A stretch of DNA of 63,882 bases, counting the filler, from Stramenopiles sp. TOSAG23-2 (Eukaryota), in NCBI GenBank assembly GCA_900128395.1. It is 13 parts of 13 records of this genome, joined end to end, with 100 filler letters (N's around TTAATTAATTAA, not from the genome) between each part and the next. Parts side by side here need not be neighbours in the genome. Positions count along the whole stretch, not along the records: positions 54,171 to 58,976 come from LT650809.1; 12 more parts are not named here. The stretch is one strand, 5' to 3'. Under the pieces are notes generated by a model that saw only the letters and a list, made by a program, of their open reading frames with translations, had not been told where the DNA came from and did not search any database. Position numbers and translations under genes: made by a program. Position 1 is the stretch's first letter. Every line of letters starts with the position of its first letter. Below, piece by piece: positions 1-58,843 of the stretch.

Positions 1-558
1 AATGTTCTCTTACTCATATATTATATAAATTTCTTTTACTCCCGTTCATTAACATAACTGGTATGTATAAATTAGTACGAGTATCATAGGAGTGGTATTA
101 TAGTTTAAAAAAACACCGCACATTAAAAGAAGTTAAAAAAAAGGAGAACAAAATAAATATAACACACACTGGGCCTTCAAAAACCATTTTACGAAGATTA
201 TATAAAAATATATATGATATATATATAAAATATTACATTAAAAAATAAATTATGCATTAATTAATATATATATAAAATATTATGTACGTCTTGCTCATAT
301 TTTGTTTTATACGAACTACAAAAATAAAACCTAAAACTACACACACACCTTCTACATTTCATGAAAACCTGTAGGAAAACATGGAATCAAAGCCATACTT
401 TAACCCTTCTCTTGTTAACAATACCCACGACTCATAACCAGATATCATCTGTTGGAAGAAACCTATCCTTGGCAGACCATAGACAAGATAAACCTATTTC
501 CGTCATATTGATTAAGCATGCATTACCTGCATGGTGTACAGCACACCAAAATGATAAA

Positions 559-3500
559 TTAGGATTTGCTGCGCCTAGTTTTCCAACTATTGCTATTCTT
601 TTTCCTTATCTTTTTCCTCATGGAAGAATTGCCTTTATAAAAGTATTTCAATGTGTCTAAACGCGTCTGTAACTCTTTAATCTTCTCTTTCAATGCTTTG
701 TTTTCCACATCACGAAGTTTAAGTCTACTTTCTAACACTGAAGCTTTCATACCATCAAATACACTACCTTTCTCTCGTGTTTGTGTCATTTCAATTTCAA
801 CTTGCGGTGCATCCAACGGATTATCTACCCACTCTGCCTGGCTTGAACGTAACCACAGACCAAATCCTTTCTTACAACAAGGCTGAAATAATTTCCACGA
901 GACCAATTGGGAACATACTTTTTTGCTTCTTCCAACCAATTGTTCACGTCGCTCCATCCATGCCAACCACACATACACACAGAAGCCTACGAAAAAGCAA
1001 AAAATGTTTATAAATAGTACAAAACCTTCCCCAAACTTGCACATGGTGTGGATACTACTCTCCTTTGCTTGACATTCTGGGTACACCACAAACACTCCTC
1101 CTATCCAAAGGGTGACAAAGCAGCAGGATAATAACATGATTTCAAGCAAAGATAAACTCCTGGAGTGGAATGGTTGAACCATGACCGTATGTACCAATAA
1201 CATACCAACCACTCCTATGGCAAGTAGCACTTGTAACTTGTCAGAAAATATACCAATGTATATAATTAAAAGCTTTCGCAAAGCTACCCAAAATTCATGC
1301 ATATAATTGTTTCTAGAAAATCCATCGTATAACATACCAAACCGAACTTGTGTCAACGATTCGTCTAGTTTTTTGCGGTATCTATACAAAGCATACATTG
1401 CAGCTATTGGTAAACCAAGGATATACACAAGGACACACGGCCAACCCAATAGATTGCGCCATAACAAATGGGTACTGTCAGTGCATTTGGTTTCTGGGTC
1501 GATGAGAAATACCTCGCCTATTCCCTCTCCAAAATCATAGCATTTCCACAGCTGAAGAATGTTAGAGGTAATTGCAGGCCAGACAAAATATAAAACCAAC
1601 ACAATAGTTCCTGTCCGCATGGCATTCCGCTTCTCGGGTGGATACCTTCCACCACAGATACACCAGCCCACCACCGAGAGAAGTACCAACATAACAGGAG
1701 CTAGCGCATAGCCCAAGGTTTTAATATACTGAATTTGCGCGATGGACACGGGTTCGGACCAGCTGCAACGCATATCGATGTATTCTTCTCCTACTGAGGA
1801 AACCATGCTCTGCATTTTAAAAAGTTCAAAATACCCTTCTGGCCATGGAATATTCATGGTAGAGGCCAACGCGGCCAGTTGAAGAAAGGAAACAAATATT
1901 TTTTTGGCACCATCGGATACTCGAAAGGCACCGCCACGTTTGACGACGGTAGACCATATAAAGAAAAGCAAGAGTAATAAAATGAGAACGGCAACCAGAA
2001 TGGGAAACAAAAGCTTCAATTCGCCTTTGTAGCAAGGCTTACATCCTGCTGCGCCATCACGACTGTACCCAGGACGACAGTTGGCGCAGAGGACGGAGCC
2101 AGCTTCGAAACCTTTGTCACTGTTACAGCCTTCGTCGGCATCATTTAAGAACACTTTCTCCTTGCAACCAATACCGTCATTAAAAGCTCCAAGGCAAGCA
2201 CAGGGATTTAAACATGCAATAAACCTGGTTGTATTCGGTACGCGCCAATAACCTGCTTTGGCTACCATCCCAAGAGCATCAATGGCATCAGGACAAAAGG
2301 CTCCGTGAGGACATCTGGTGCATTGATTGTCTTCTAAAGTTGACTCTAGATAAAATCCCATACCACACGACTTAGGACAATAATCTTTTACTTTGTTTGT
2401 ATCGTTTTTTAAGCCGGTGATAAGGCTAAATCGGCCAGCTGGACAATCCATGCACGCGTCTCGAAGCTTCGACTGACCTGCCAATACCCCGTATTTGGAT
2501 GCTGGGCATGCTTGACACACGTTGTTTTCGTATTCTTTTGCCTTGTAAGAGGCATTCTGACTGGATATCCCATATTTACCTAAGGAACATGGGGTTTTTA
2601 AACCGTCGCGTTCACAAAAATAGCCATTCGGACAGACCAAACAGTCGCTTTCAGAATTCTGACCAATGCGTGAGCCATACTTTCCAGGCTCGCATACAGA
2701 GCTGCAAGCTTCCGCAAGGGTAGTTTTACCTTTTGCATGACCATACCGACCCCGCGGACATGTGTTGGGGCATCCTTCGTCTATGGAACGAGCGTTTGTA
2801 ACATTTCCATACCTTCCAGGAGGACAATTCGACATGCAGGAGGTTTGGCCTGCGGAAGGGTTGTATCGCCCTGCAGCACAGCTTGCACACGCTTCTGTTT
2901 CCAGAATTACACCTGCCTTGGTTCCATATTTTCCCGTCGGACAATTGTGACAGGCATAAACGTTGGCTCCATACTTGCCGGGCTGACAACCTACAAAGCA
3001 TACAACGCCTTCGTTCGGGTTAGCTTTGTTGACGCAGATGGGGTTGGTATACCCGTTGGAGGTGCAGAGGGTTGGGGTGCATGTGGTGGGGGGGATGAAT
3101 TGCTCGATACCTGCTATTTGTGTAGTTGAATCGAAGCCATAAAAATTGCTTGTGTTGGTCTCTTGAATAAATTTGGTGTTGATGAGTGTGATGGAAGGTG
3201 TGCCTTCTGTCCCATTCACTGTCATAATTTGGTGGCCTTTATTATGATTCGCAATGTTTGAAATAAAGGATGATTCTGTTGAAGTGAAGATGGCATTGTA
3301 ATTGACATGCAACCCGGAACCACCACAATCAGCTTCATTGGACATTGTGATATTATTTCGTTCAACGATTACACGCTTCATAGTAAGCGTTGAACCACCT
3401 TCAATATGGTTACCACTAAGATAAATGCCTGCCCCTGAGCAGAAACCTTTGTTTTCTGAAACAACTGAATCTTCAATATGGGCAATTGACGAATCCAACA

Positions 3501-24900: not shown

Positions 24901-27057
24901 TTAACGACTTTGGAAAGCAGTTGCTTGTGCACGAAAACTACGTGATTTTGCTTCAAGCTTTGCAATCTTACTTTTCGACATGTACTTCTTTGCTTCTTCC
25001 CATTCACGATCCAACCACCACAAGGTACCATGGGTTGTTGCATTTTTACATTGCTCTTTGACAGTCTCCAATGCAATTTCTGCTGCTTGCATACTCTCTT
25101 CACTTCGTACTGCTGCCTCTTTTGCAAGCTCAGCACTTTTTGCTGCTGCTTCTGCTGTTTTAGCTGCTTCTGCCGCGGCTGCTTTTGAAGCTGCTGCTTC
25201 TGCATCAGCTTTTTCTCTTTGTGCTACTGCATTTGCACGCGCTTCAATCGCGCGATTGTGGGAACCAGTTGCAGCCTTTTCTAATGTAAGAGCTGTTGCT
25301 TCTTCTTCTTTTGCAATCTCTTCTTCGTTCTTTGCTTGGTTTTCTGCTTCTTGAGCTGCTAATGCATCTTTTTGTGCTTGCTCTGCTGCTGCTTTTGCAT
25401 CTGCAGCTGCTTTACTTGCTTGTTCAGCATCAGCATCTGCAAGTTGTCTTGCTTCAACAGCTTTTGCACGAACACCAGCAGCCTTTTCCTTTGCTGCGGT
25501 TGCAACAGATCTCTCAGACTCTGCTTCTGCAGCTTTTGCTTTTGCTTTTTTCGCTGCTCTACCAACTTTTCTTACTGTTGCACCTTGATTGATTTTTGCT
25601 CGGTCTAATGGCATTGGATCTTTTGCTTTCAACTGTGCCAGTTCAGCAGCTGCCCGGCCTTTTGTTACTGTACCTGCATCTGAGTCTGCAACTGCTGCTA
25701 ATTGAGTACATTTATCATCATAAGCTTTTTGTTGCGCGTTCATTTCTGCAAGGGCATCTTCAGCTGCTTTTTGAGCAGCTGCCAAAGCATTTGAAGCGGA
25801 TACGGCTTCTGCTTCAACAGTTGCTAATTTTGCCTCTGCTTTGGAACATACTTCCTCTTCGGCAACAGCATCTGCTTCTTTTTCTTTAGCAATTTTTGCA
25901 GATGCTTGTGCAGCTTGTGATTGTTCATAACTTTCATTTGCAGCAACCTCACTAGCTTTTGCAGTTCGTCTTGCTTCTTCAGATGCCTCTTCCGCAGCTT
26001 GGCGTGCACTTGTTGCCTTTTCCGCTTGTTCGTTTGCTGCCTCTCTTGCAGCCGTTGCTGCTTCTTTTTGACTTTTTGCTGATGCTTCTTTTTTAATTGC
26101 TTCTGCCTCACTTTCTTGTGCTTTTTTTGCAGATGCAACTGCTTCTTCTTCTTTTTTCTTCGCCTCTTCTGCCGCTGTCGTAGCAGCGACAGCATCTTCT
26201 TCTGCTGCTTTAGCAGCTACTGCACTTTGTTCAGCTTGAGTTTGTGCGTCTGCTAATGCTTGTTTCGCAGCTTCAATCTTTGCAGTTGTTTCATCGTCGC
26301 CACCAATCACTGCATTTACAAGGACATGGTAATCAAGTGAATATTGGAAAATAAAAAATTCAGTCAATGAAACTTTTTTATTAAAATCAACATCAACCTC
26401 TTTTAAAATTTCACGCATTCTCTTAATTGTCATTACTCTTCCAGTTTTCTCTAAGAAAACATGGGCTTGGAATTCATCAAGCTCATTCCCATCTTTGCCG
26501 TTTTGCAAATCTAACTTTGCAATTAAACGAGCAAAATCCCACACTTTTTCTCTTGCATCAGGATTATTACCAAAATTCATAGGCTCAGTATTCCAATATG
26601 CATTTAGAAACCACTGCGCTTGTTCATAATAATTTTTTTCTGATAATTCTTTCAATTTCGAAAAATCACTTTTTTGCGATGAAGGTGGCGGTGCTTTGCC
26701 AGACTTTGTTTCTGCTGGGCGTAGCATAGATGTGCGTCTTGCTTTTGCTTTGGAAGATTTTCTGGTTTCGTCACTTGGTGCAGCTGGTAAAGCAGATACT
26801 TTATCGTTTGACTCAGGCGCTTTTGGTGCATCAGTTGTTGCTGACATATAACTCAAACCATCTAAGTAACTAGAAAATTCTTCATAATCTTTCAATTGTT
26901 TCCATCCTTCCATAGCTTCGTTCCAGATCCATGTTTCATCATCGATTCCACCATCTTTATGGTAACCAGCCATCTCAGTAGTTGAAAATGGACCAACGTT
27001 TTCAACACCATCTTCACCTAAATAAAACCACTCTGTTTCGTCGTTCCAAGAAGTCAT
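24901..27057 (-). CDS. Mirror copy of the 27136-29292 gene (probably artefactual)
   Basis: Identical translation in the other palindrome arm. Confidence 0.5.
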   Translation of the reverse strand: MTSWNDETEWFYLGEDGVENVGPFSTTEMAGYHKDGGIDDETWIWNEAMEGWKQLKDYEEFSSYLDGLSYMSATTDAPKAPESNDKVSALPAAPSDETRKSSKAKARRTSMLRPAETKSGKAPPPSSQKSDFSKLKELSEKNYYEQAQWFLNAYWNTEPMNFGNNPDAREKVWDFARLIAKLDLQNGKDGNELDEFQAHVFLEKTGRVMTIKRMREILKEVDVDFNKKVSLTEFFIFQYSLDYHVLVNAVIGGDDETTAKIEAAKQALADAQTQAEQSAVAAKAAEEDAVAATTAAEEAKKKEEEAVASAKKAQESEAEAIKKEASAKSQKEAATAAREAANEQAEKATSARQAAEEASEEARRTAKASEVAANESYEQSQAAQASAKIAKEKEADAVAEEEVCSKAEAKLATVEAEAVSASNALAAAQKAAEDALAEMNAQQKAYDDKCTQLAAVADSDAGTVTKGRAAAELAQLKAKDPMPLDRAKINQGATVRKVGRAAKKAKAKAAEAESERSVATAAKEKAAGVRAKAVEARQLADADAEQASKAAADAKAAAEQAQKDALAAQEAENQAKNEEEIAKEEEATALTLEKAATGSHNRAIEARANAVAQREKADAEAAASKAAAAEAAKTAEAAAKSAELAKEAAVRSEESMQAAEIALETVKEQCKNATTHGTLWWLDREWEEAKKYMSKSKIAKLEAKSRSFRAQATAFQSR

Positions 27058-27135: not shown

Positions 27136-29292
27136 ATGACTTCTTGGAACGACGAAACAGAGTGGTTTTATTTAGGTGAAGATGGTGTTGAAAACGTTGG
27201 TCCATTTTCAACTACTGAGATGGCTGGTTACCATAAAGATGGTGGAATCGATGATGAAACATGGATCTGGAACGAAGCTATGGAAGGATGGAAACAATTG
27301 AAAGATTATGAAGAATTTTCTAGTTACTTAGATGGTTTGAGTTATATGTCAGCAACAACTGATGCACCAAAAGCGCCTGAGTCAAACGATAAAGTATCTG
27401 CTTTACCAGCTGCACCAAGTGACGAAACCAGAAAATCTTCCAAAGCAAAAGCAAGACGCACATCTATGCTACGCCCAGCAGAAACAAAGTCTGGCAAAGC
27501 ACCGCCACCTTCATCGCAAAAAAGTGATTTTTCGAAATTGAAAGAATTATCAGAAAAAAATTATTATGAACAAGCGCAGTGGTTTCTAAATGCATATTGG
27601 AATACTGAGCCTATGAATTTTGGTAATAATCCTGATGCAAGAGAAAAAGTGTGGGATTTTGCTCGTTTAATTGCAAAGTTAGATTTGCAAAACGGCAAAG
27701 ATGGGAATGAGCTTGATGAATTCCAAGCCCATGTTTTCTTAGAGAAAACTGGAAGAGTAATGACAATTAAGAGAATGCGTGAAATTTTAAAAGAGGTTGA
27801 TGTTGATTTTAATAAAAAAGTTTCATTGACTGAATTTTTTATTTTCCAATATTCACTTGATTACCATGTCCTTGTAAATGCAGTGATTGGTGGCGACGAT
27901 GAAACAACTGCAAAGATTGAAGCTGCGAAACAAGCATTAGCAGACGCACAAACTCAAGCTGAACAAAGTGCAGTAGCTGCTAAAGCAGCAGAAGAAGATG
28001 CTGTCGCTGCTACGACAGCGGCAGAAGAGGCGAAGAAAAAAGAAGAAGAAGCAGTTGCATCTGCAAAAAAAGCACAAGAAAGTGAGGCAGAAGCAATTAA
28101 AAAAGAAGCATCAGCAAAAAGTCAAAAAGAAGCAGCAACGGCTGCAAGAGAGGCAGCAAACGAACAAGCGGAAAAGGCAACAAGTGCACGCCAAGCTGCG
28201 GAAGAGGCATCTGAAGAAGCAAGACGAACTGCAAAAGCTAGTGAGGTTGCTGCAAATGAAAGTTATGAACAATCACAAGCTGCACAAGCATCTGCAAAAA
28301 TTGCTAAAGAAAAAGAAGCAGATGCTGTTGCCGAAGAGGAAGTATGTTCCAAAGCAGAGGCAAAATTAGCAACTGTTGAAGCAGAAGCCGTATCCGCTTC
28401 AAATGCTTTGGCAGCTGCTCAAAAAGCAGCTGAAGATGCCCTTGCAGAAATGAACGCGCAACAAAAAGCTTATGATGATAAATGTACTCAATTAGCAGCA
28501 GTTGCAGACTCAGATGCAGGTACAGTAACAAAAGGCCGGGCAGCTGCTGAACTGGCACAGTTGAAAGCAAAAGATCCAATGCCATTAGACCGAGCAAAAA
28601 TCAATCAAGGTGCAACAGTAAGAAAAGTTGGTAGAGCAGCGAAAAAAGCAAAAGCAAAAGCTGCAGAAGCAGAGTCTGAGAGATCTGTTGCAACCGCAGC
28701 AAAGGAAAAGGCTGCTGGTGTTCGTGCAAAAGCTGTTGAAGCAAGACAACTTGCAGATGCTGATGCTGAACAAGCAAGTAAAGCAGCTGCAGATGCAAAA
28801 GCAGCAGCAGAGCAAGCACAAAAAGATGCATTAGCAGCTCAAGAAGCAGAAAACCAAGCAAAGAACGAAGAAGAGATTGCAAAAGAAGAAGAAGCAACAG
28901 CTCTTACATTAGAAAAGGCTGCAACTGGTTCCCACAATCGCGCGATTGAAGCGCGTGCAAATGCAGTAGCACAAAGAGAAAAAGCTGATGCAGAAGCAGC
29001 AGCTTCAAAAGCAGCCGCGGCAGAAGCAGCTAAAACAGCAGAAGCAGCAGCAAAAAGTGCTGAGCTTGCAAAAGAGGCAGCAGTACGAAGTGAAGAGAGT
29101 ATGCAAGCAGCAGAAATTGCATTGGAGACTGTCAAAGAGCAATGTAAAAATGCAACAACCCATGGTACCTTGTGGTGGTTGGATCGTGAATGGGAAGAAG
29201 CAAAGAAGTACATGTCGAAAAGTAAGATTGCAAAGCTTGAAGCAAAATCACGTAGTTTTCGTGCACAAGCAACTGCTTTCCAAAGTCGTTAA
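27136..29292 (+). CDS. GYF_2 domain + EF-hand calcium-regulated actin-bundling-like protein with long Ala/Glu/Lys coiled coil
   Basis: WFYL...VGPFS...ETWIWNEAMEGW (GYF_2). EQAQWFLNAYW, LDEFQAHVFLE, EVDVDFNKKVSLTEF, ELAQLKAKDPMPL and GTLWWLDREWEEAKKY resemble the Dictyostelium 34-kDa actin-bundling family. Confidence 0.75.
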   Translation: MTSWNDETEWFYLGEDGVENVGPFSTTEMAGYHKDGGIDDETWIWNEAMEGWKQLKDYEEFSSYLDGLSYMSATTDAPKAPESNDKVSALPAAPSDETRKSSKAKARRTSMLRPAETKSGKAPPPSSQKSDFSKLKELSEKNYYEQAQWFLNAYWNTEPMNFGNNPDAREKVWDFARLIAKLDLQNGKDGNELDEFQAHVFLEKTGRVMTIKRMREILKEVDVDFNKKVSLTEFFIFQYSLDYHVLVNAVIGGDDETTAKIEAAKQALADAQTQAEQSAVAAKAAEEDAVAATTAAEEAKKKEEEAVASAKKAQESEAEAIKKEASAKSQKEAATAAREAANEQAEKATSARQAAEEASEEARRTAKASEVAANESYEQSQAAQASAKIAKEKEADAVAEEEVCSKAEAKLATVEAEAVSASNALAAAQKAAEDALAEMNAQQKAYDDKCTQLAAVADSDAGTVTKGRAAAELAQLKAKDPMPLDRAKINQGATVRKVGRAAKKAKAKAAEAESERSVATAAKEKAAGVRAKAVEARQLADADAEQASKAAADAKAAAEQAQKDALAAQEAENQAKNEEEIAKEEEATALTLEKAATGSHNRAIEARANAVAQREKADAEAAASKAAAAEAAKTAEAAAKSAELAKEAAVRSEESMQAAEIALETVKEQCKNATTHGTLWWLDREWEEAKKYMSKSKIAKLEAKSRSFRAQATAFQSR

Positions 29293-54912: not shown

Positions 54913-55971
54913 ATGATGATGATGATGAGTGGAAATAATAATAATAATGGTGCAAATACCTCAAGCACAACAACGACCACAACAATGAATGATAACAATA
55001 ATATGCCACAAATGCCAGATATGTCCATGATGGCAAATATGATGAGTGGTGCTGGAATGAATCCTGAAGATATGGTACAAATGATGTCATCTATGTCCCC
55101 AAATATGCTCCAAAATAGCGGAATGATGCTGATGAACCCAGCTGATATGATGAATTCAATGAATCCCGAATTAATGCAAGCAATGACGACCCCCGAAGGC
55201 ATGCAGCAAATGCAGCAAATGCAACAATTTATGATGCAGCAAATGGGTGCTGCAACTGGGATAGGCGACTCTAATCCAGGTCAATGGTTTAATGCAGCTG
55301 CAAGACAAATGTTGCCAGGAACAGGAACAAACTCAGAGGAAGAACCAATGTATGTGAATGCTAAACAATATAAACGTATATTGTTACGCAGAGAAGCACG
55401 TGCGAAATTAGAAGCAAAATTTAAGCTGACTCGTGGAAGAAAAAAATATTTACATGAATCAAGGCATCAACATGCATGTAGAAGACGTAGAGGACCAGGT
55501 GGTAGATTTTTAACACAAGAAGAAATGAAAAAAATATTGGAAGAAGAGGAATTAGCTAGAAAATCGGAAGCTAATAGTAAGAATAACAAGAAGGACGATG
55601 ATAATAATAACAAAGAAAGTAGTAGTAGTAATAAGAATAAGAATAATAAAAACAAGGATGATTACGACAGGATTAATAATAATAATAGTAATAATAATAA
55701 TAATGACCACAATTCAACACCACCAACCAGTTCTCCGATGAAAGCTGAGGTAGATAGTAGTAGTGGTAGTAATAGAAAGAGTAAGCGAAAAAACAGCCCG
55801 AAAAAAAATATTAATAGTCCAATAATGGTAACTCCAGAAACTAATAACAAACGAACTTCTAAGCGATTTACTAGAAGTAATAGTGGCAGTAGTGTTGATT
55901 CATCAACTACATCATCATCACAACGTCCATTAAAAAAGTCAAAACGTACTCATACTCCCAGAAGAAGATAA
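54913..55971 (+). CDS. NFYA: Nuclear transcription factor Y subunit A (HAP2/CBF-B)
   Basis: [25 protein letters not shown]...[22 protein letters not shown]. Confidence 0.95.
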
Positions 55972-56630
55972 AATGTATGTGTATATATATATATATATAC
56001 TTATTTAATTAATGCATAATTTATTTTTTAATTTACTCATGATAATTCCTACTCTCCAGAAAGAATACAATAACTGAGACAAATCTATCTCACTAAACTG
56101 AAAGATATATATAAATAATAAAAGTACGCGCGTATGATATTTTCATTTTTACGAAGAGTATTATTTTTTAAAAACTCTTTTATATTGTATTCTCAAGATT
56201 TATATAAAAAATCTTATGCATACAAACGTAGATTTTAACCATCTTTATTTTAATATATATATACTTCGTATATATATCTAGAATATAAAATATAATTTAT
56301 TTTTAATGTACGTAAGTATATATAAAATTTTCTATTACTCATATATTATATAAATTTCTTTTACTCCCGTTCATTAACATCTCAAATCAAAAATGATTTA
56401 TCTTATATATATATATTAAAATAATTTTACTTTCCCATTGGTAAAAATATTATGCTCAATACTCTATCTCAAGGGGAATAATATTCAATCCTACGAAGTA
56501 CTATGTAAAACTAAAGCTCTAACGCAGATATACATATATATGTATAAAAGTGTCTCACATACGAAGCTTCGTCGTATTAAAAACCAAATATGATTTTGCT
56601 TTTGCGTGCCGGGGGGGAATCACTCAGTTT

Positions 56631-56690
56631 GATAAGATCGAAAACTATTTCGTATATTTGTTATTTCCTAAATAGTTTTGTCATTTCTTT
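56631..56690 (-). promoter_or_regulatory. Eukaryotic SECIS element in the 3' UTR of the PrdB/GrdB-like gene
   Basis: Minus strand: AAGAA-AUGAC-AAAACUAUUU-AG-GAAAUAACAAAUAUA-CG-AAAUAGUUUU-CGAU-CUU. AUGA/GA core, perfect 10-bp helix II, unpaired apical As. Confidence 0.88.
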
Positions 56691-56791
56691 TTTCTTTTTT
56701 TGGTTCATATTCTTGTGTTATATATTTTTTGTGTTCTATGAATATATTCAAACATAAATAACCATTCACATGTATATATATATATATAAAT

Positions 56792-57939
56792 TTACATCCT
56801 CGCTTGATTGTAATATTTATTTTGTCGGATTGCTTCTGGTGATACAATACCTTCTGCGTCTTGACCATAATGGCCAATTGCTAAAGCCATGTCATCCTCT
56901 GATTGATAAACACGTTTTCTAACGCGTTTTGGTCTTATTGCTGCTCTTGAATTACCAACTTCAAATACATCATTAACAGTATCAGCCCAATCAACATCCA
57001 ATACGTTTACTTGTCCAGGTTTGTTGAAACTATGAAAACCACGAAGAGCAGCATAAACAACATGTTTTTGATCTTCTACATCAAATGGTTTACCACTGTG
57101 GGGCGTATATGAATGAGTGATGTGTTAGAAAGGATATCCTTCTTAGGTTTAGGGGAATAGAATTTTACGTACGCTTGATGGCCTAGAGGGTAGTTCACAA
57201 ACGAGATACGTGGAGCCCATGCATGGCTTAATATATCAAATGCACTACCTAATAACATTGTTGGAATACCAGCTTCTTCTAACCCCCTTGCAATTAGAGA
57301 ACTGGTTTGATGACATAAAGGTCACATAGCTACTACTAAACAAACATCTGGTTGTTCAGCTTGAATTGCTTTTGTAACATTTGGAATTAAATTTTTTGTA
57401 ACTTTTTTTACAGAATAACATGCACCCATAACACTAAAAAAGTTTTTTGTTAAACTTCCAATTAAATGATCTTCGTGTAATGCTGATCGTAATGTATCAA
57501 TTGGAAATATGCAATTTGGATCACGTCTACCATCTGTTAAATAATTTTCCGTGAAATGACTAAAACGTAAGTCAGTAGTAGGTGTATTACTTGGTATGAC
57601 TCGATACGTATCATCATCTTTGTATTTATATGCAAGATCACCCTTAACATGGCAACCCGAAGTGGAAATTAATGTAACTTTGCATTGAGACAATGGTTTT
57701 TCGACTTTAACAAACTTTGGCGGTGTTTCTGAATTTACCCATCCATATGGACGTAAATTGGGATTACCTGCTGCTATATCTGGTATCCAATTTTTACAAG
57801 TATCACAATTTGTTGGTTGTGAAGTAACAGAACGTATTGATTCTCGAAGGCCAGGGACAATTACTTCTCTTTTTTCTTTATACCCTCTATCTACTGGTAA
57901 TTTTGATCCAGAAAAATATGGTGGATATGTCGATGTCAT
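56792..57939 (-). CDS. PrdB/GrdB-like (proline/glycine reductase selenoprotein B family) selenoprotein, 356 aa, Sec206; exons 57939-57173 and 57095-56792
   Basis: KPLSQCKVTLISTSG...DPNCIFPIDTLR...DVCLVVAM-UGA-PLCHQTSSLIARGLEEAGIPT...PLGHQAGKPFD. Family similarity continues through the UGA at 57322-57324. 77-nt GTACGT...CTAAC...CAG intron; SECIS downstream. Confidence 0.9.
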
Positions 57940-58561
57940 GGTGGCGTTATACTTTTGTATATGTAGTATAGCAACTCTGATATAGCTTCTTTAAGCTGTA
58001 CATTAATTTTCTATATTTCAATTTATTAATGTTTAGCAACTACTTTGTATGTATGCCAGGTACTAGTATGCGCGTTCGACGGAGGAGTTGTAAGTAATTT
58101 AATAAGGGGACGAAAAAAAGCCTGGATATAGAATAGCATGAACATAGCTAGCTAGTACGAATTAACATGGTCATAGCATGGTTCATCTTACCCTAATCCT
58201 AACCATAACTATTTTCAAAAAGATAAAACGTCTTTGCATTTATTATTAGCAGCCGCCTGGTTTTATTTTGTCGGCTTTTCTCCACACTAAAAACTGTAAT
58301 ATGAATAACATGACACAGCATTACCAAGATTAAGTTTAACGAATAACGATAAAAGTGATTCGGATGTTGTATTTTTAGATCTAAAAAATACAACTAAATA
58401 CTATTGGAAACATAGATTGATTATTAGGTACAGAAAAAATAAATAAAAATATAATTAAAAATAATGCAACAACACACAAGAAACATATAACAAAACAAAA
58501 GTACAAAAACAAACAAACACACACAGAACATAATAATAATAATAATAATAGCAAAGCAATC

Positions 58562-58843
58562 ATGTCATCATATCAAACCCCAGATACTAAAAAAGAAGAA
58601 TTTCGTAAATACTTGGAAAAAAGTGGTGTAATCGATGCCTTAACAAAAGTTTTAGTAGGCTTATATGAGGAACCAGAACGTCCACCAAATGCTGTGGAAT
58701 ACATCAAACGTTATTTAGGTGCCCCAGCTGGCGTAGATGTGGAAGCTTTGAAATCTGAAAATGCACGATTAAAGAAAGAAAATGCCGCATTACAAGAAAA
58801 GGTTGAACAAGCTGCAAACAATATGGGAGGTAAAGATGAATAA
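58562..58843 (+). CDS. MYCBP: c-Myc-binding protein (AMY-1/FAP174 homologue)
   Basis: KKEEFRKYLEKSGVIDALTKVLVGLYEEPERP. Confidence 0.93.
   Translation: MSSYQTPDTKKEEFRKYLEKSGVIDALTKVLVGLYEEPERPPNAVEYIKRYLGAPAGVDVEALKSENARLKKENAALQEKVEQAANNMGGKDE

Follow-up and report, generated by a model that had tools for sequence, protein, structure and literature searches.

A probable eukaryotic-type SECIS element behind a PrdB-like selenoprotein gene in Stramenopiles sp. TOSAG23-2

Results

A hairpin in the predicted 3' UTR of a PrdB-like gene of Stramenopiles sp. TOSAG23-2 very probably acts as the functional SECIS of that gene. It was judged so because of compensatory changes in an orthologous locus (L003), the enrichment of similar hairpins behind the Sec genes of the same genome, and the presence of SBP2, SepSecS and tRNA-Sec. 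The same evidence bears out an earlier interpretation of the DNA (the sequence-only reading), in which the hairpin was said to support Sec decoding of the PrdB-like UGA. The hairpin by itself is an ordinary SECIS and the gene it vouches for matters more. The window, that is the whole stretch of DNA analysed, measured 63,882 nucleotides, and the coordinates of the features in it are listed in Table 1.

Table 1. Positions of the hairpin, its parts, the PrdB-like gene and the neighbouring genes, counted along the window.
Feature	Position	Strand	Remark
Probable eukaryotic-type SECIS element, whole	56631..56690	minus	anatomy, shuffles, orthologue
SECIS core 5' half, A + UGAN	56680..56684	minus	motif match
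SECIS core 3' half, CGAU	56637..56640	minus	C where published consensus has G/U
Helix II 5' arm	56670..56679	minus	ten Watson-Crick pairs
Helix II 3' arm	56641..56650	minus	both bases of pairs 3 and 4 differ in L003
Apical adenosines AAA, unpaired in predicted fold	56664..56666	minus	14 nt from AUGA
Possible 3-bp mini-stem (type II), weak	56654..56664	minus	pair probability 0.10-0.12
Helix I, three pairs, weak	56634..56689 (56689-56687 with 56634-56636)	minus	folding
Exon 1, PrdB-like selenoprotein gene	57173..57939	minus	ATG at 57939; spliced product 356 aa
In-frame TGA, codon 206, first position of UxxC	57322..57324	minus	TGA invariance in relatives
Intron, 77 nt, GT..AG	57096..57172	minus	exons join gapless against intronless relatives
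Exon 2, ends in TAA	56792..57095	minus	colinearity with intronless relatives
C-terminal Ala-Arg-Met, PTS1-like	56795..56803	minus	fits peroxisomal PTS1 consensus
Site of bacterial-type hairpin just after UGA	57293..57311	minus	broken, 4/7 pairs
c-Myc-binding-protein-like gene, divergent upstream neighbour	58562..58843	plus	also adjoins orthologue L003
NF-YA gene, convergent downstream neighbour	54913..55971	plus	same gap-free contig

Anatomy of the hairpin

All letters that the sequence-only reading had described were found at their place on the minus strand, and the distance from the stop codon, which it had put at about 105 nt, was measured as 107 nt from the end of the stop at 56792 to the beginning of the core. 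Helix II was perfect, as claimed, with ten ungapped Watson-Crick pairs (56679-56670 with 56641-56650) whose probabilities were 0.67-0.99 when the core was held open and 0.42-0.98 in the free fold. One further pair was present beyond these ten, and 10-11 of the 14 spacer positions were paired. The apical adenosines stayed unpaired in the predicted fold, again as described, and their offset of 14 nt was the same in L003 and in the GPx gene L062 of this genome.

The hairpin had also been called a canonical eukaryotic SECIS, a description that was correct for the core, helix II and the apical adenosines but too strong for the first base of the 3' core half, a C for K, and for the marginal helix I. 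The tandem G.A core was present (5' AUGA, with the 3' GA at the base of helix II), and the five letters of its 5' half were identical in L003, in L062 and in the Prx-like gene L080 of this genome. The 3' half read CGAU where the UGAN/KGAW consensus, as given in section 4 of PMC3753652, has KGAW. A C at this position was shared by 2 of the 7 other SECIS elements of the genome; the C-type 3' half was seen in L062 and L080 and also in L003, L008, L033 and L035. The C reads as a local variant of the consensus preference and not as a loss of the core.

The proposed type II mini-stem can form as three A-U pairs, but its probability was low (Table 1), and L003 folds a longer apical stem instead. Likewise, the three pairs of the proposed short helix I are possible, but had a probability of only 0.04 with the core open; they reached 0.53-0.60 in the free fold, which mispairs the core. 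Helix I was similarly weak in L003, L060 and L064.

On the spliced mRNA the hairpin lies about 560 nt from UGA 206. Part of the region 56400-58000 was contained in 20 of the 21 sequencing runs listed, 15 being recorded as RNA; these figures denote presence only and were not counted as evidence of transcription. A poly(A) run follows the hairpin in two relatives, about 130 nt after its end in L005 and about 80 nt in L007.

Chance expectation and covariance models

A strict descriptor (R-UGA-N, ten ungapped pairs, AA at offset 10-14, N-GA-N) had this hairpin as its single match over both strands of the window. When the 300 nt that follow the stop were shuffled 3000 times with dinucleotide content kept, one shuffle gave a match with 10/10 pairs. 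The folding energy alone was unremarkable (z -1.46; 24/200 shuffles were as good). A looser thermodynamic descriptor was satisfied by 32/1000 shuffles; as its background it gave 9 matches over the window and 15 over 84,417 bases of antisense DNA. In the first 350 nt 3' of the stop it matched 7 of the 10 testable Sec genes of the genome and none of the controls, which comprised 17 family members without Sec (the 3' sequence of three being shorter) and 25 long ORFs of the window. Fisher's p for the Sec genes against the family controls was 1.4e-4, an optimistic value, as this descriptor was tuned after the elements had been seen. The Sec genes L059, L061 and L063, whose stop or 3' region lay off the contig DNA examined, stood outside the count, and L065 and L064 were counted as one SelT gene. 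No match was present in these 350 nt behind the GPx gene L058, the MsrA gene L075 and the Prx-like gene L085; L075 has an AUGA hairpin in which the 3' GA is missing.

The covariance-model match that the sequence-only reading had proposed as a check was not obtained from Rfam or from two models built for this analysis. At gathering scores Rfam gave no SECIS match in the window, and at E<=10 the surroundings of the element returned mir-297 alone (E 1.6), on an AT repeat upstream. The Rfam model RF00031 had no match genome-wide (121 of 678 candidates scored), so its miss at the element says little. Model R1 was built from 11 other elements, the window copy being excluded, on a MAFFT alignment with 5 pairs in register, and it ranked the element 9th of its 14 window matches (E 4.4). 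Model R2 held 2 elements and 11 pairs, again with the window copy excluded; the element was absent among its 24 matches. When R2 was run on five held-out elements of this genome, two were recovered in full at E<=0.01 and one at E 4.7; the models thus also miss other elements of the genome. MAFFT failed to bring both arms of the SECIS helix into register. R1 and R2 are underpowered and gave the element no support. Non-metazoan SECIS are described as the hardest to predict in the part of PMC3753652 consulted.

The low folding z-score, the shuffles that satisfied the loose descriptor and the silence of the covariance models would suit a hairpin that folds by chance in 3' DNA rich in A/T, the UGA being recoded by another, undetected element; three of the ten Sec genes of this genome lacked a descriptor match, so that other signals exist or are missed. 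We consider this very unlikely. The strict match was rare in shuffles and unique in the window, no second descriptor match was found within 350 nt of the PrdB-like stop, and L003 keeps the core, the offset and compensatory changes while its flanks have diverged. The hairpin as the SECIS of the PrdB-like gene is thus the reading that we prefer.

Conservation in eukaryote-like relatives

Of 47 metagenome loci, 43 were examined; at L043, L044, L047 and L048, which were excluded, the match stops before the Sec site. The UxxC motif was shown by 41 of the 43 loci, with TGA in 41/41. Among the loci of named genomes TGA was found at the Sec site in 35/36, the remaining one being without the motif.

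The orthologue L003 had 70% protein identity to the window gene and the same upstream neighbour; a Mis12-like gene adjoins it as well. Its SECIS arms were identical to those of the window at 16/21 and 11/14 positions, compared with 13/40 and 11/40 in the flanks. Helix pairs 3 and 4 still pair after their change on both sides, a compensation seen in this one orthologous comparison, while pairs 6 and 7 are mismatches and the AA offset is unchanged.

Ten loci were treated as eukaryote-like (L002-L008, L033, L035 and L040), of which L004, L006 and L008 are near-copies of others in the set and L033 and L040 were assigned by the tree only. L002 matches the DNA of the window locus at 97% identity and shares its intron, a poly(A) run closes L005 and L007, and L035 is marked by a candidate intron and by a mitochondrial-carrier gene beside it. 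A core-and-helix hairpin was present 44-135 nt after the stop in 10/10 eukaryote-like loci with enough 3' sequence. Five of these hairpins (L002, L003 and L004-L006) had the apical AA and were rare in shuffles (1-7/300). The other five (L007, L008, L033, L035 and L040) lacked it and were individually within chance (18-119/300 shuffles); if functional, they would be non-canonical SECIS forms. Where bacteria-like loci had 100 nt or more of 3' sequence, 0/23 had a hairpin with AA and 3/23 had one when AA was not required.

The similarity between L002 and the window stops near 56396. Downstream, L002 carries a nitronate monooxygenase gene (L002:2292-3458) where the window (54913-56400) has NF-YA, a difference that reflects either a rearrangement or an assembly join. 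Intergenic DNA 3' of the element (56263-56161 and about 56110-56030) is met again elsewhere: blastn gave a further piece of it in L002, and the region 3' of the GPx gene L058 visibly resembles it, which suggests a dispersed non-coding repeat. Elsewhere in the window, two identical 78-nt stretches on opposite strands (26848-26925 and 27268-27345) form an inverted repeat.

Sec machinery and other Sec genes of the genome

The genome holds tRNA-Sec at three places, a SepSecS gene and an L7Ae-domain protein whose best PDB match was human SBP2 (E 9e-24). In-frame TGA codons were found in 6/6 GPx, 2/5 MsrA and 3/10 AhpC/TSA matches of this genome and also in its SelW- and SelT-like genes. A search for Sep15/SelM gave no usable match in the genome, with no control responding, and a search for AhpC-TSA_2 gave one gene, without TGA.

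Several of these loci had further features. The SBP2 frame at L071 (G000:C722, frame 1 to 3087) continues through a PAM2 motif and an Asn-rich stretch and then into a Methyltransf_16 lysine methyltransferase domain; it may possibly encode an SBP2-methyltransferase fusion, or two genes or an intron may have been read as one frame. At L063 (G000:C1029) a SelW-like CxxU domain is followed, after what looks like an intron, by a long frame that contains hydrophobic segments; this is possibly a fusion of the domain to a membrane protein. The AhpC/TSA-like loci L080 and L083 (G000:C613 and C744) have an in-frame TGA and a SECIS-like hairpin and end in SKL and AKM, respectively, two of the three PTS1-like ends among 82 ORFs of this genome; in L083 a second TGA codon lies three residues from the first (UxxU). 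Both are further candidate peroxisomal selenoproteins. Tandem tRNA-Sec genes (L049/L050) lie about 2 kb from the TGA-containing AhpC/TSA-like L085 on contig G000:C1254.

The PrdB-like gene

The PrdB-like gene, the SECIS, NF-YA and the c-Myc-binding-protein-like gene share a single gap-free contig. Since the best named matches of the c-Myc-binding-protein-like neighbour are stramenopiles, the host most probably belongs to that group. The Sec motif of the predicted protein is M-U-P-L-C-H-Q, with UxxC formed by U206-P-L-C209.

Public gene callers stop the protein at residue 205 and cut its database relatives at the UGA as well, which would fit genuine termination at the UGA, or its decoding as Cys or Trp, with a hairpin that does no job on the gene. 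The 150 residues after the UGA are nonetheless conserved and colinear with Cys-containing relatives, and TGA stands exactly at the catalytic position in the 41/41 metagenome and 35/36 named-genome loci. Cys replaces Sec in the more distant relatives P0030, P0085 and P0097. TGA also ends ordinary genes here, for example GPx at L062, and the Sec machinery is present. Termination or Cys or Trp decoding at UGA 206 is therefore extremely unlikely, and we read the codon as Sec. The family is hidden in public catalogues because gene callers cut all its proteins at the UGA.

The best family match, found with the exon-1 product only, was TIGR04483 (PrdB; E 3e-35), at 121.8 bits against a cut-off of 300; matches to GrdB-type families were weaker and a Pfam search of the protein gave no match. 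Eukaryotic copies have a longer C-terminus and an N-terminal segment of their own, bacterial relatives beginning about 60 residues later. In the window this eukaryote-specific segment (residues 1-63, 57939-57750) contains an invariant Cys45, which sits in a CxxC whose second Cys is variable. A structure model of the exon-1 product had a mean pLDDT of 72 and placed the Sec position after a predicted strand, at the start of a helix. Foldseek returned no match to the model at E<=0.001, the best VIA Z was 7.3, no specific fold match was found, and a sequence search of the PDB gave nothing below E 0.18.

PF09338 (PrdA/GrdE type), which we take to be the pyruvoyl-forming partner subunit, was found in 1/20 bacterial genomes carrying the closest relatives. 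It was not found in this incomplete genome, where no control responded either, or among 31 neighbouring ORFs from 8 loci. A Stickland-type reductase role is unlikely, because the partner occurs in one of the 20 carrier genomes and was not found in the incomplete genome of the host. The designation PrdB-like from the sequence-only reading therefore stands as far as the best family match goes and falls short at the family cut-off, and the searches above gave no PrdA-type partner here. That the gene encodes a true PrdB subunit of D-proline reductase with a PrdA-type pyruvoyl partner is very unlikely given the score and the partner searches, even though TIGR04483 is its best match and UxxC is the motif listed for PrdB in the part of PMC13188914 consulted.

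Exchange of the recoding signal and origin of the gene

A 7-pair hairpin that starts 10 nt after the UGA was perfect in 22/22 distinct bacteria-like loci and had 7/7 pairs in 35/36 loci of named genomes, which are mostly MAGs of Alpha- and Betaproteobacteria. Bacterial SECIS lie in the same place, just after the UGA (PMC2398784, in the part consulted), and from its place the hairpin would be the SelB signal of the bacterial genes. It had 4/7 pairs in the window and 2-5 in 7/8 distinct eukaryote-like loci; L033 keeps 7/7 pairs at the site. The decay coincides with amino-acid changes, and the loss of the hairpin may be a by-product of these.

In a quick tree of 34 rows (no bootstrap, midpoint root) the eight eukaryotic rows fell on one side of a branch with an SH-aLRT of 98, and the sister group of the eukaryotic clade was not settled. 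In a tree of 73 rows the corresponding eukaryotic group of 18 rows had support of 94/87 and its core of 15 rows 100/99. The eukaryotic copies, which span 33-71% G+C, make up a single clade that lies among proteobacterial copies. A single gain in a common ancestor, or a single gain followed by transfer among protists, fits these data best. The clade, together with the hairpin after the stop in 10/10 eukaryote-like loci, suggests that the SECIS was gained in an ancestor and not in this species alone.

The sequence-only reading had inferred that the SECIS was gained after transfer of the gene from bacteria. The post-UGA hairpin, intact in bacteria and broken here, and the tree support a replacement of the bacterial-type signal by the 3' UTR SECIS after transfer, but place the gain before this species. 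Alternatively, the gene may be old in eukaryotes, for example from the mitochondrial ancestor, and lost in most lineages, with a real SECIS as old as the gene. The closest named relatives do include Alphaproteobacteria, and a single eukaryotic clade over such a range of G+C, with a sister group that the tree leaves unsettled, would also suit old inheritance. The protein is nevertheless still about 50% identical to bacterial copies, and no eukaryote-named entry was present among the 28 and 5 homologues found, so that we regard old inheritance as unlikely and lateral gain as the better account. Under lateral gain or old inheritance alike, a eukaryotic signal took the place of the bacterial one.

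Protein function and targeting signals

Neighbouring genes were sampled at 8 of the 36 loci from named genomes, with 31 of their 49 ORFs scanned. An acyl-CoA dehydrogenase lay near four of the eight loci and a family III CoA-transferase near two, and a link of the PrdB-like enzyme to acyl-CoA catabolism is tentatively suggested.

The C-termini of the window protein (ARM), L003 (AKM) and P0344 (AKL) are PTS1-like, the consensus being (S/A/C)(K/R/H)(L/M) in the part of PMC3178647 consulted; P0345 and P0346 end without PTS1. Such ends were seen in 0/59 bacteria-like loci, against a background of 3/82 ORFs of this genome. Outside the stramenopile branch, eukaryotic copies carry a PTS2-like nonapeptide in the N-terminal extension. 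A loose pattern of our own making (the published motif is given in the consulted part of PMC7710942) matched 11/21 protein rows and 2/3 loci (8 distinct sequences), and a stricter pattern matched 6/21 rows; among the other matches, 2/131 and 1/131 were positive with the loose and strict patterns, respectively. The stramenopile branch accounts for 7/10 of the rows without a match, and P0012, P0074, P0080 and L035 have no PTS2. Diatoms use PTS1 only, according to the part of PMC7710942 consulted. The two kinds of signal, PTS1 in the stramenopile branch and PTS2 elsewhere, point to the peroxisome, where the protein would most likely act as a selenol/dithiol oxidoreductase of acyl-CoA or amino-acid catabolism and not as a D-proline reductase. 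Since the PTS1-like tail lies 3' of the UGA, we lean towards import of the read-through product alone.

Proposed mechanism and significance

As in known eukaryotic SECIS, the tandem G.A pairs would form a kink-turn that is bound by SBP2, which would bring Sec-tRNA to the upstream UGA 206 and so yield a protein of 356 aa with a UxxC redox motif. The gene would have passed once from a proteobacterium into the ancestor of several protists, in which the bacterial post-UGA hairpin would have decayed while the 3' UTR SECIS took over. The complete picture has, in our estimate, an even chance of being correct: an unreported eukaryotic family of stand-alone PrdB-like UxxC selenoproteins, taken once from marine proteobacteria and spread over several protist lineages, its hairpin swapped for a SECIS, and peroxisomal, mostly through PTS2 but in stramenopiles through PTS1, so that their import would need Sec readthrough.

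Selenoproteins of the PrdB type have a known place in anaerobic fermentation of amino acids, and their genes are also abundant, without explanation, in marine bacteria. The family provides a side-by-side record of one gene moving from bacterial to eukaryotic Sec decoding, and the survival of transferred selenoprotein genes becomes directly testable with reporters. Its targeting signals are a first handle on the site of action of PrdB-like enzymes without a partner.

Comparison with known systems

The eukaryotic branch of PrdB-like selenoproteins looks unreported. It was not found in the literature searched, which left subscription journals mostly outside, and an earlier listing under another name is possible. 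Neither PrdB nor GrdB is mentioned in PMC7539508, whether in its main text, its section 5 or its list of abbreviations, and the PrdB-like family is absent from two of the three supplements of PMC3753652.

The hairpin resembles eukaryotic SECIS, as defined in the consulted parts of PMC2761289 (AUGA/GA core; helix II spacing of about 14-15 positions from AUGA to the apical AA) and PMC3753652, in its predicted 3' UTR position, its AUGA/GA core, helix II and the distance of 14 nt from AUGA to the apical adenosines. Its distance from the UGA is well above the minimum of 51-111 nt given in section 4 of PMC3753652. It differs in the C that comes first in the 3' core half, in having only 10-11 of its 14 spacer positions paired, in a helix I of three weak pairs and in being unrecognised by RF00031.

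With PrdB (TIGR04483) and the GrdB-type selenoprotein B (PF07355, TIGR01918) the protein shares homologous sequence and Sec in UxxC. Unlike these, it scores below the curated cut-offs, and the PrdA/GrdE partner is missing in 19/20 of the closest bacterial carrier genomes; the eukaryotic copies differ further in the N-terminal segment of about 60 residues with its invariant Cys, the longer C-terminus and the signals that resemble organelle targeting. D-proline reductase is listed among prokaryotic selenoproteins in the part of PMC13188914 consulted. Abundant marine PrdB-type selenoproteins were reported from the GOS survey (PMC2398784, in the part consulted), and this marine pool was probably the source of the gene. 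There PrdB was not among the eukaryotic families, whereas here it occurs in intron-bearing eukaryotic loci and poly(A) transcripts.

Bacteria-derived selenoproteins with a eukaryotic SECIS have been described in algae. The consulted parts of the sources name a methyltransferase, a thioredoxin-fold protein and a peroxiredoxin of Ostreococcus (PMC2375036) and AhpC_b (PMC7539508), and such cases appear in PMC6627142 as well. The present gene resembles them as a bacterial-type selenoprotein with a 3' UTR SECIS in a marine microbial eukaryote, so that SECIS gain after transfer has precedent. It differs from the algal cases in belonging to another family and in that the decay of the old signal can be set beside the new signal at each locus.
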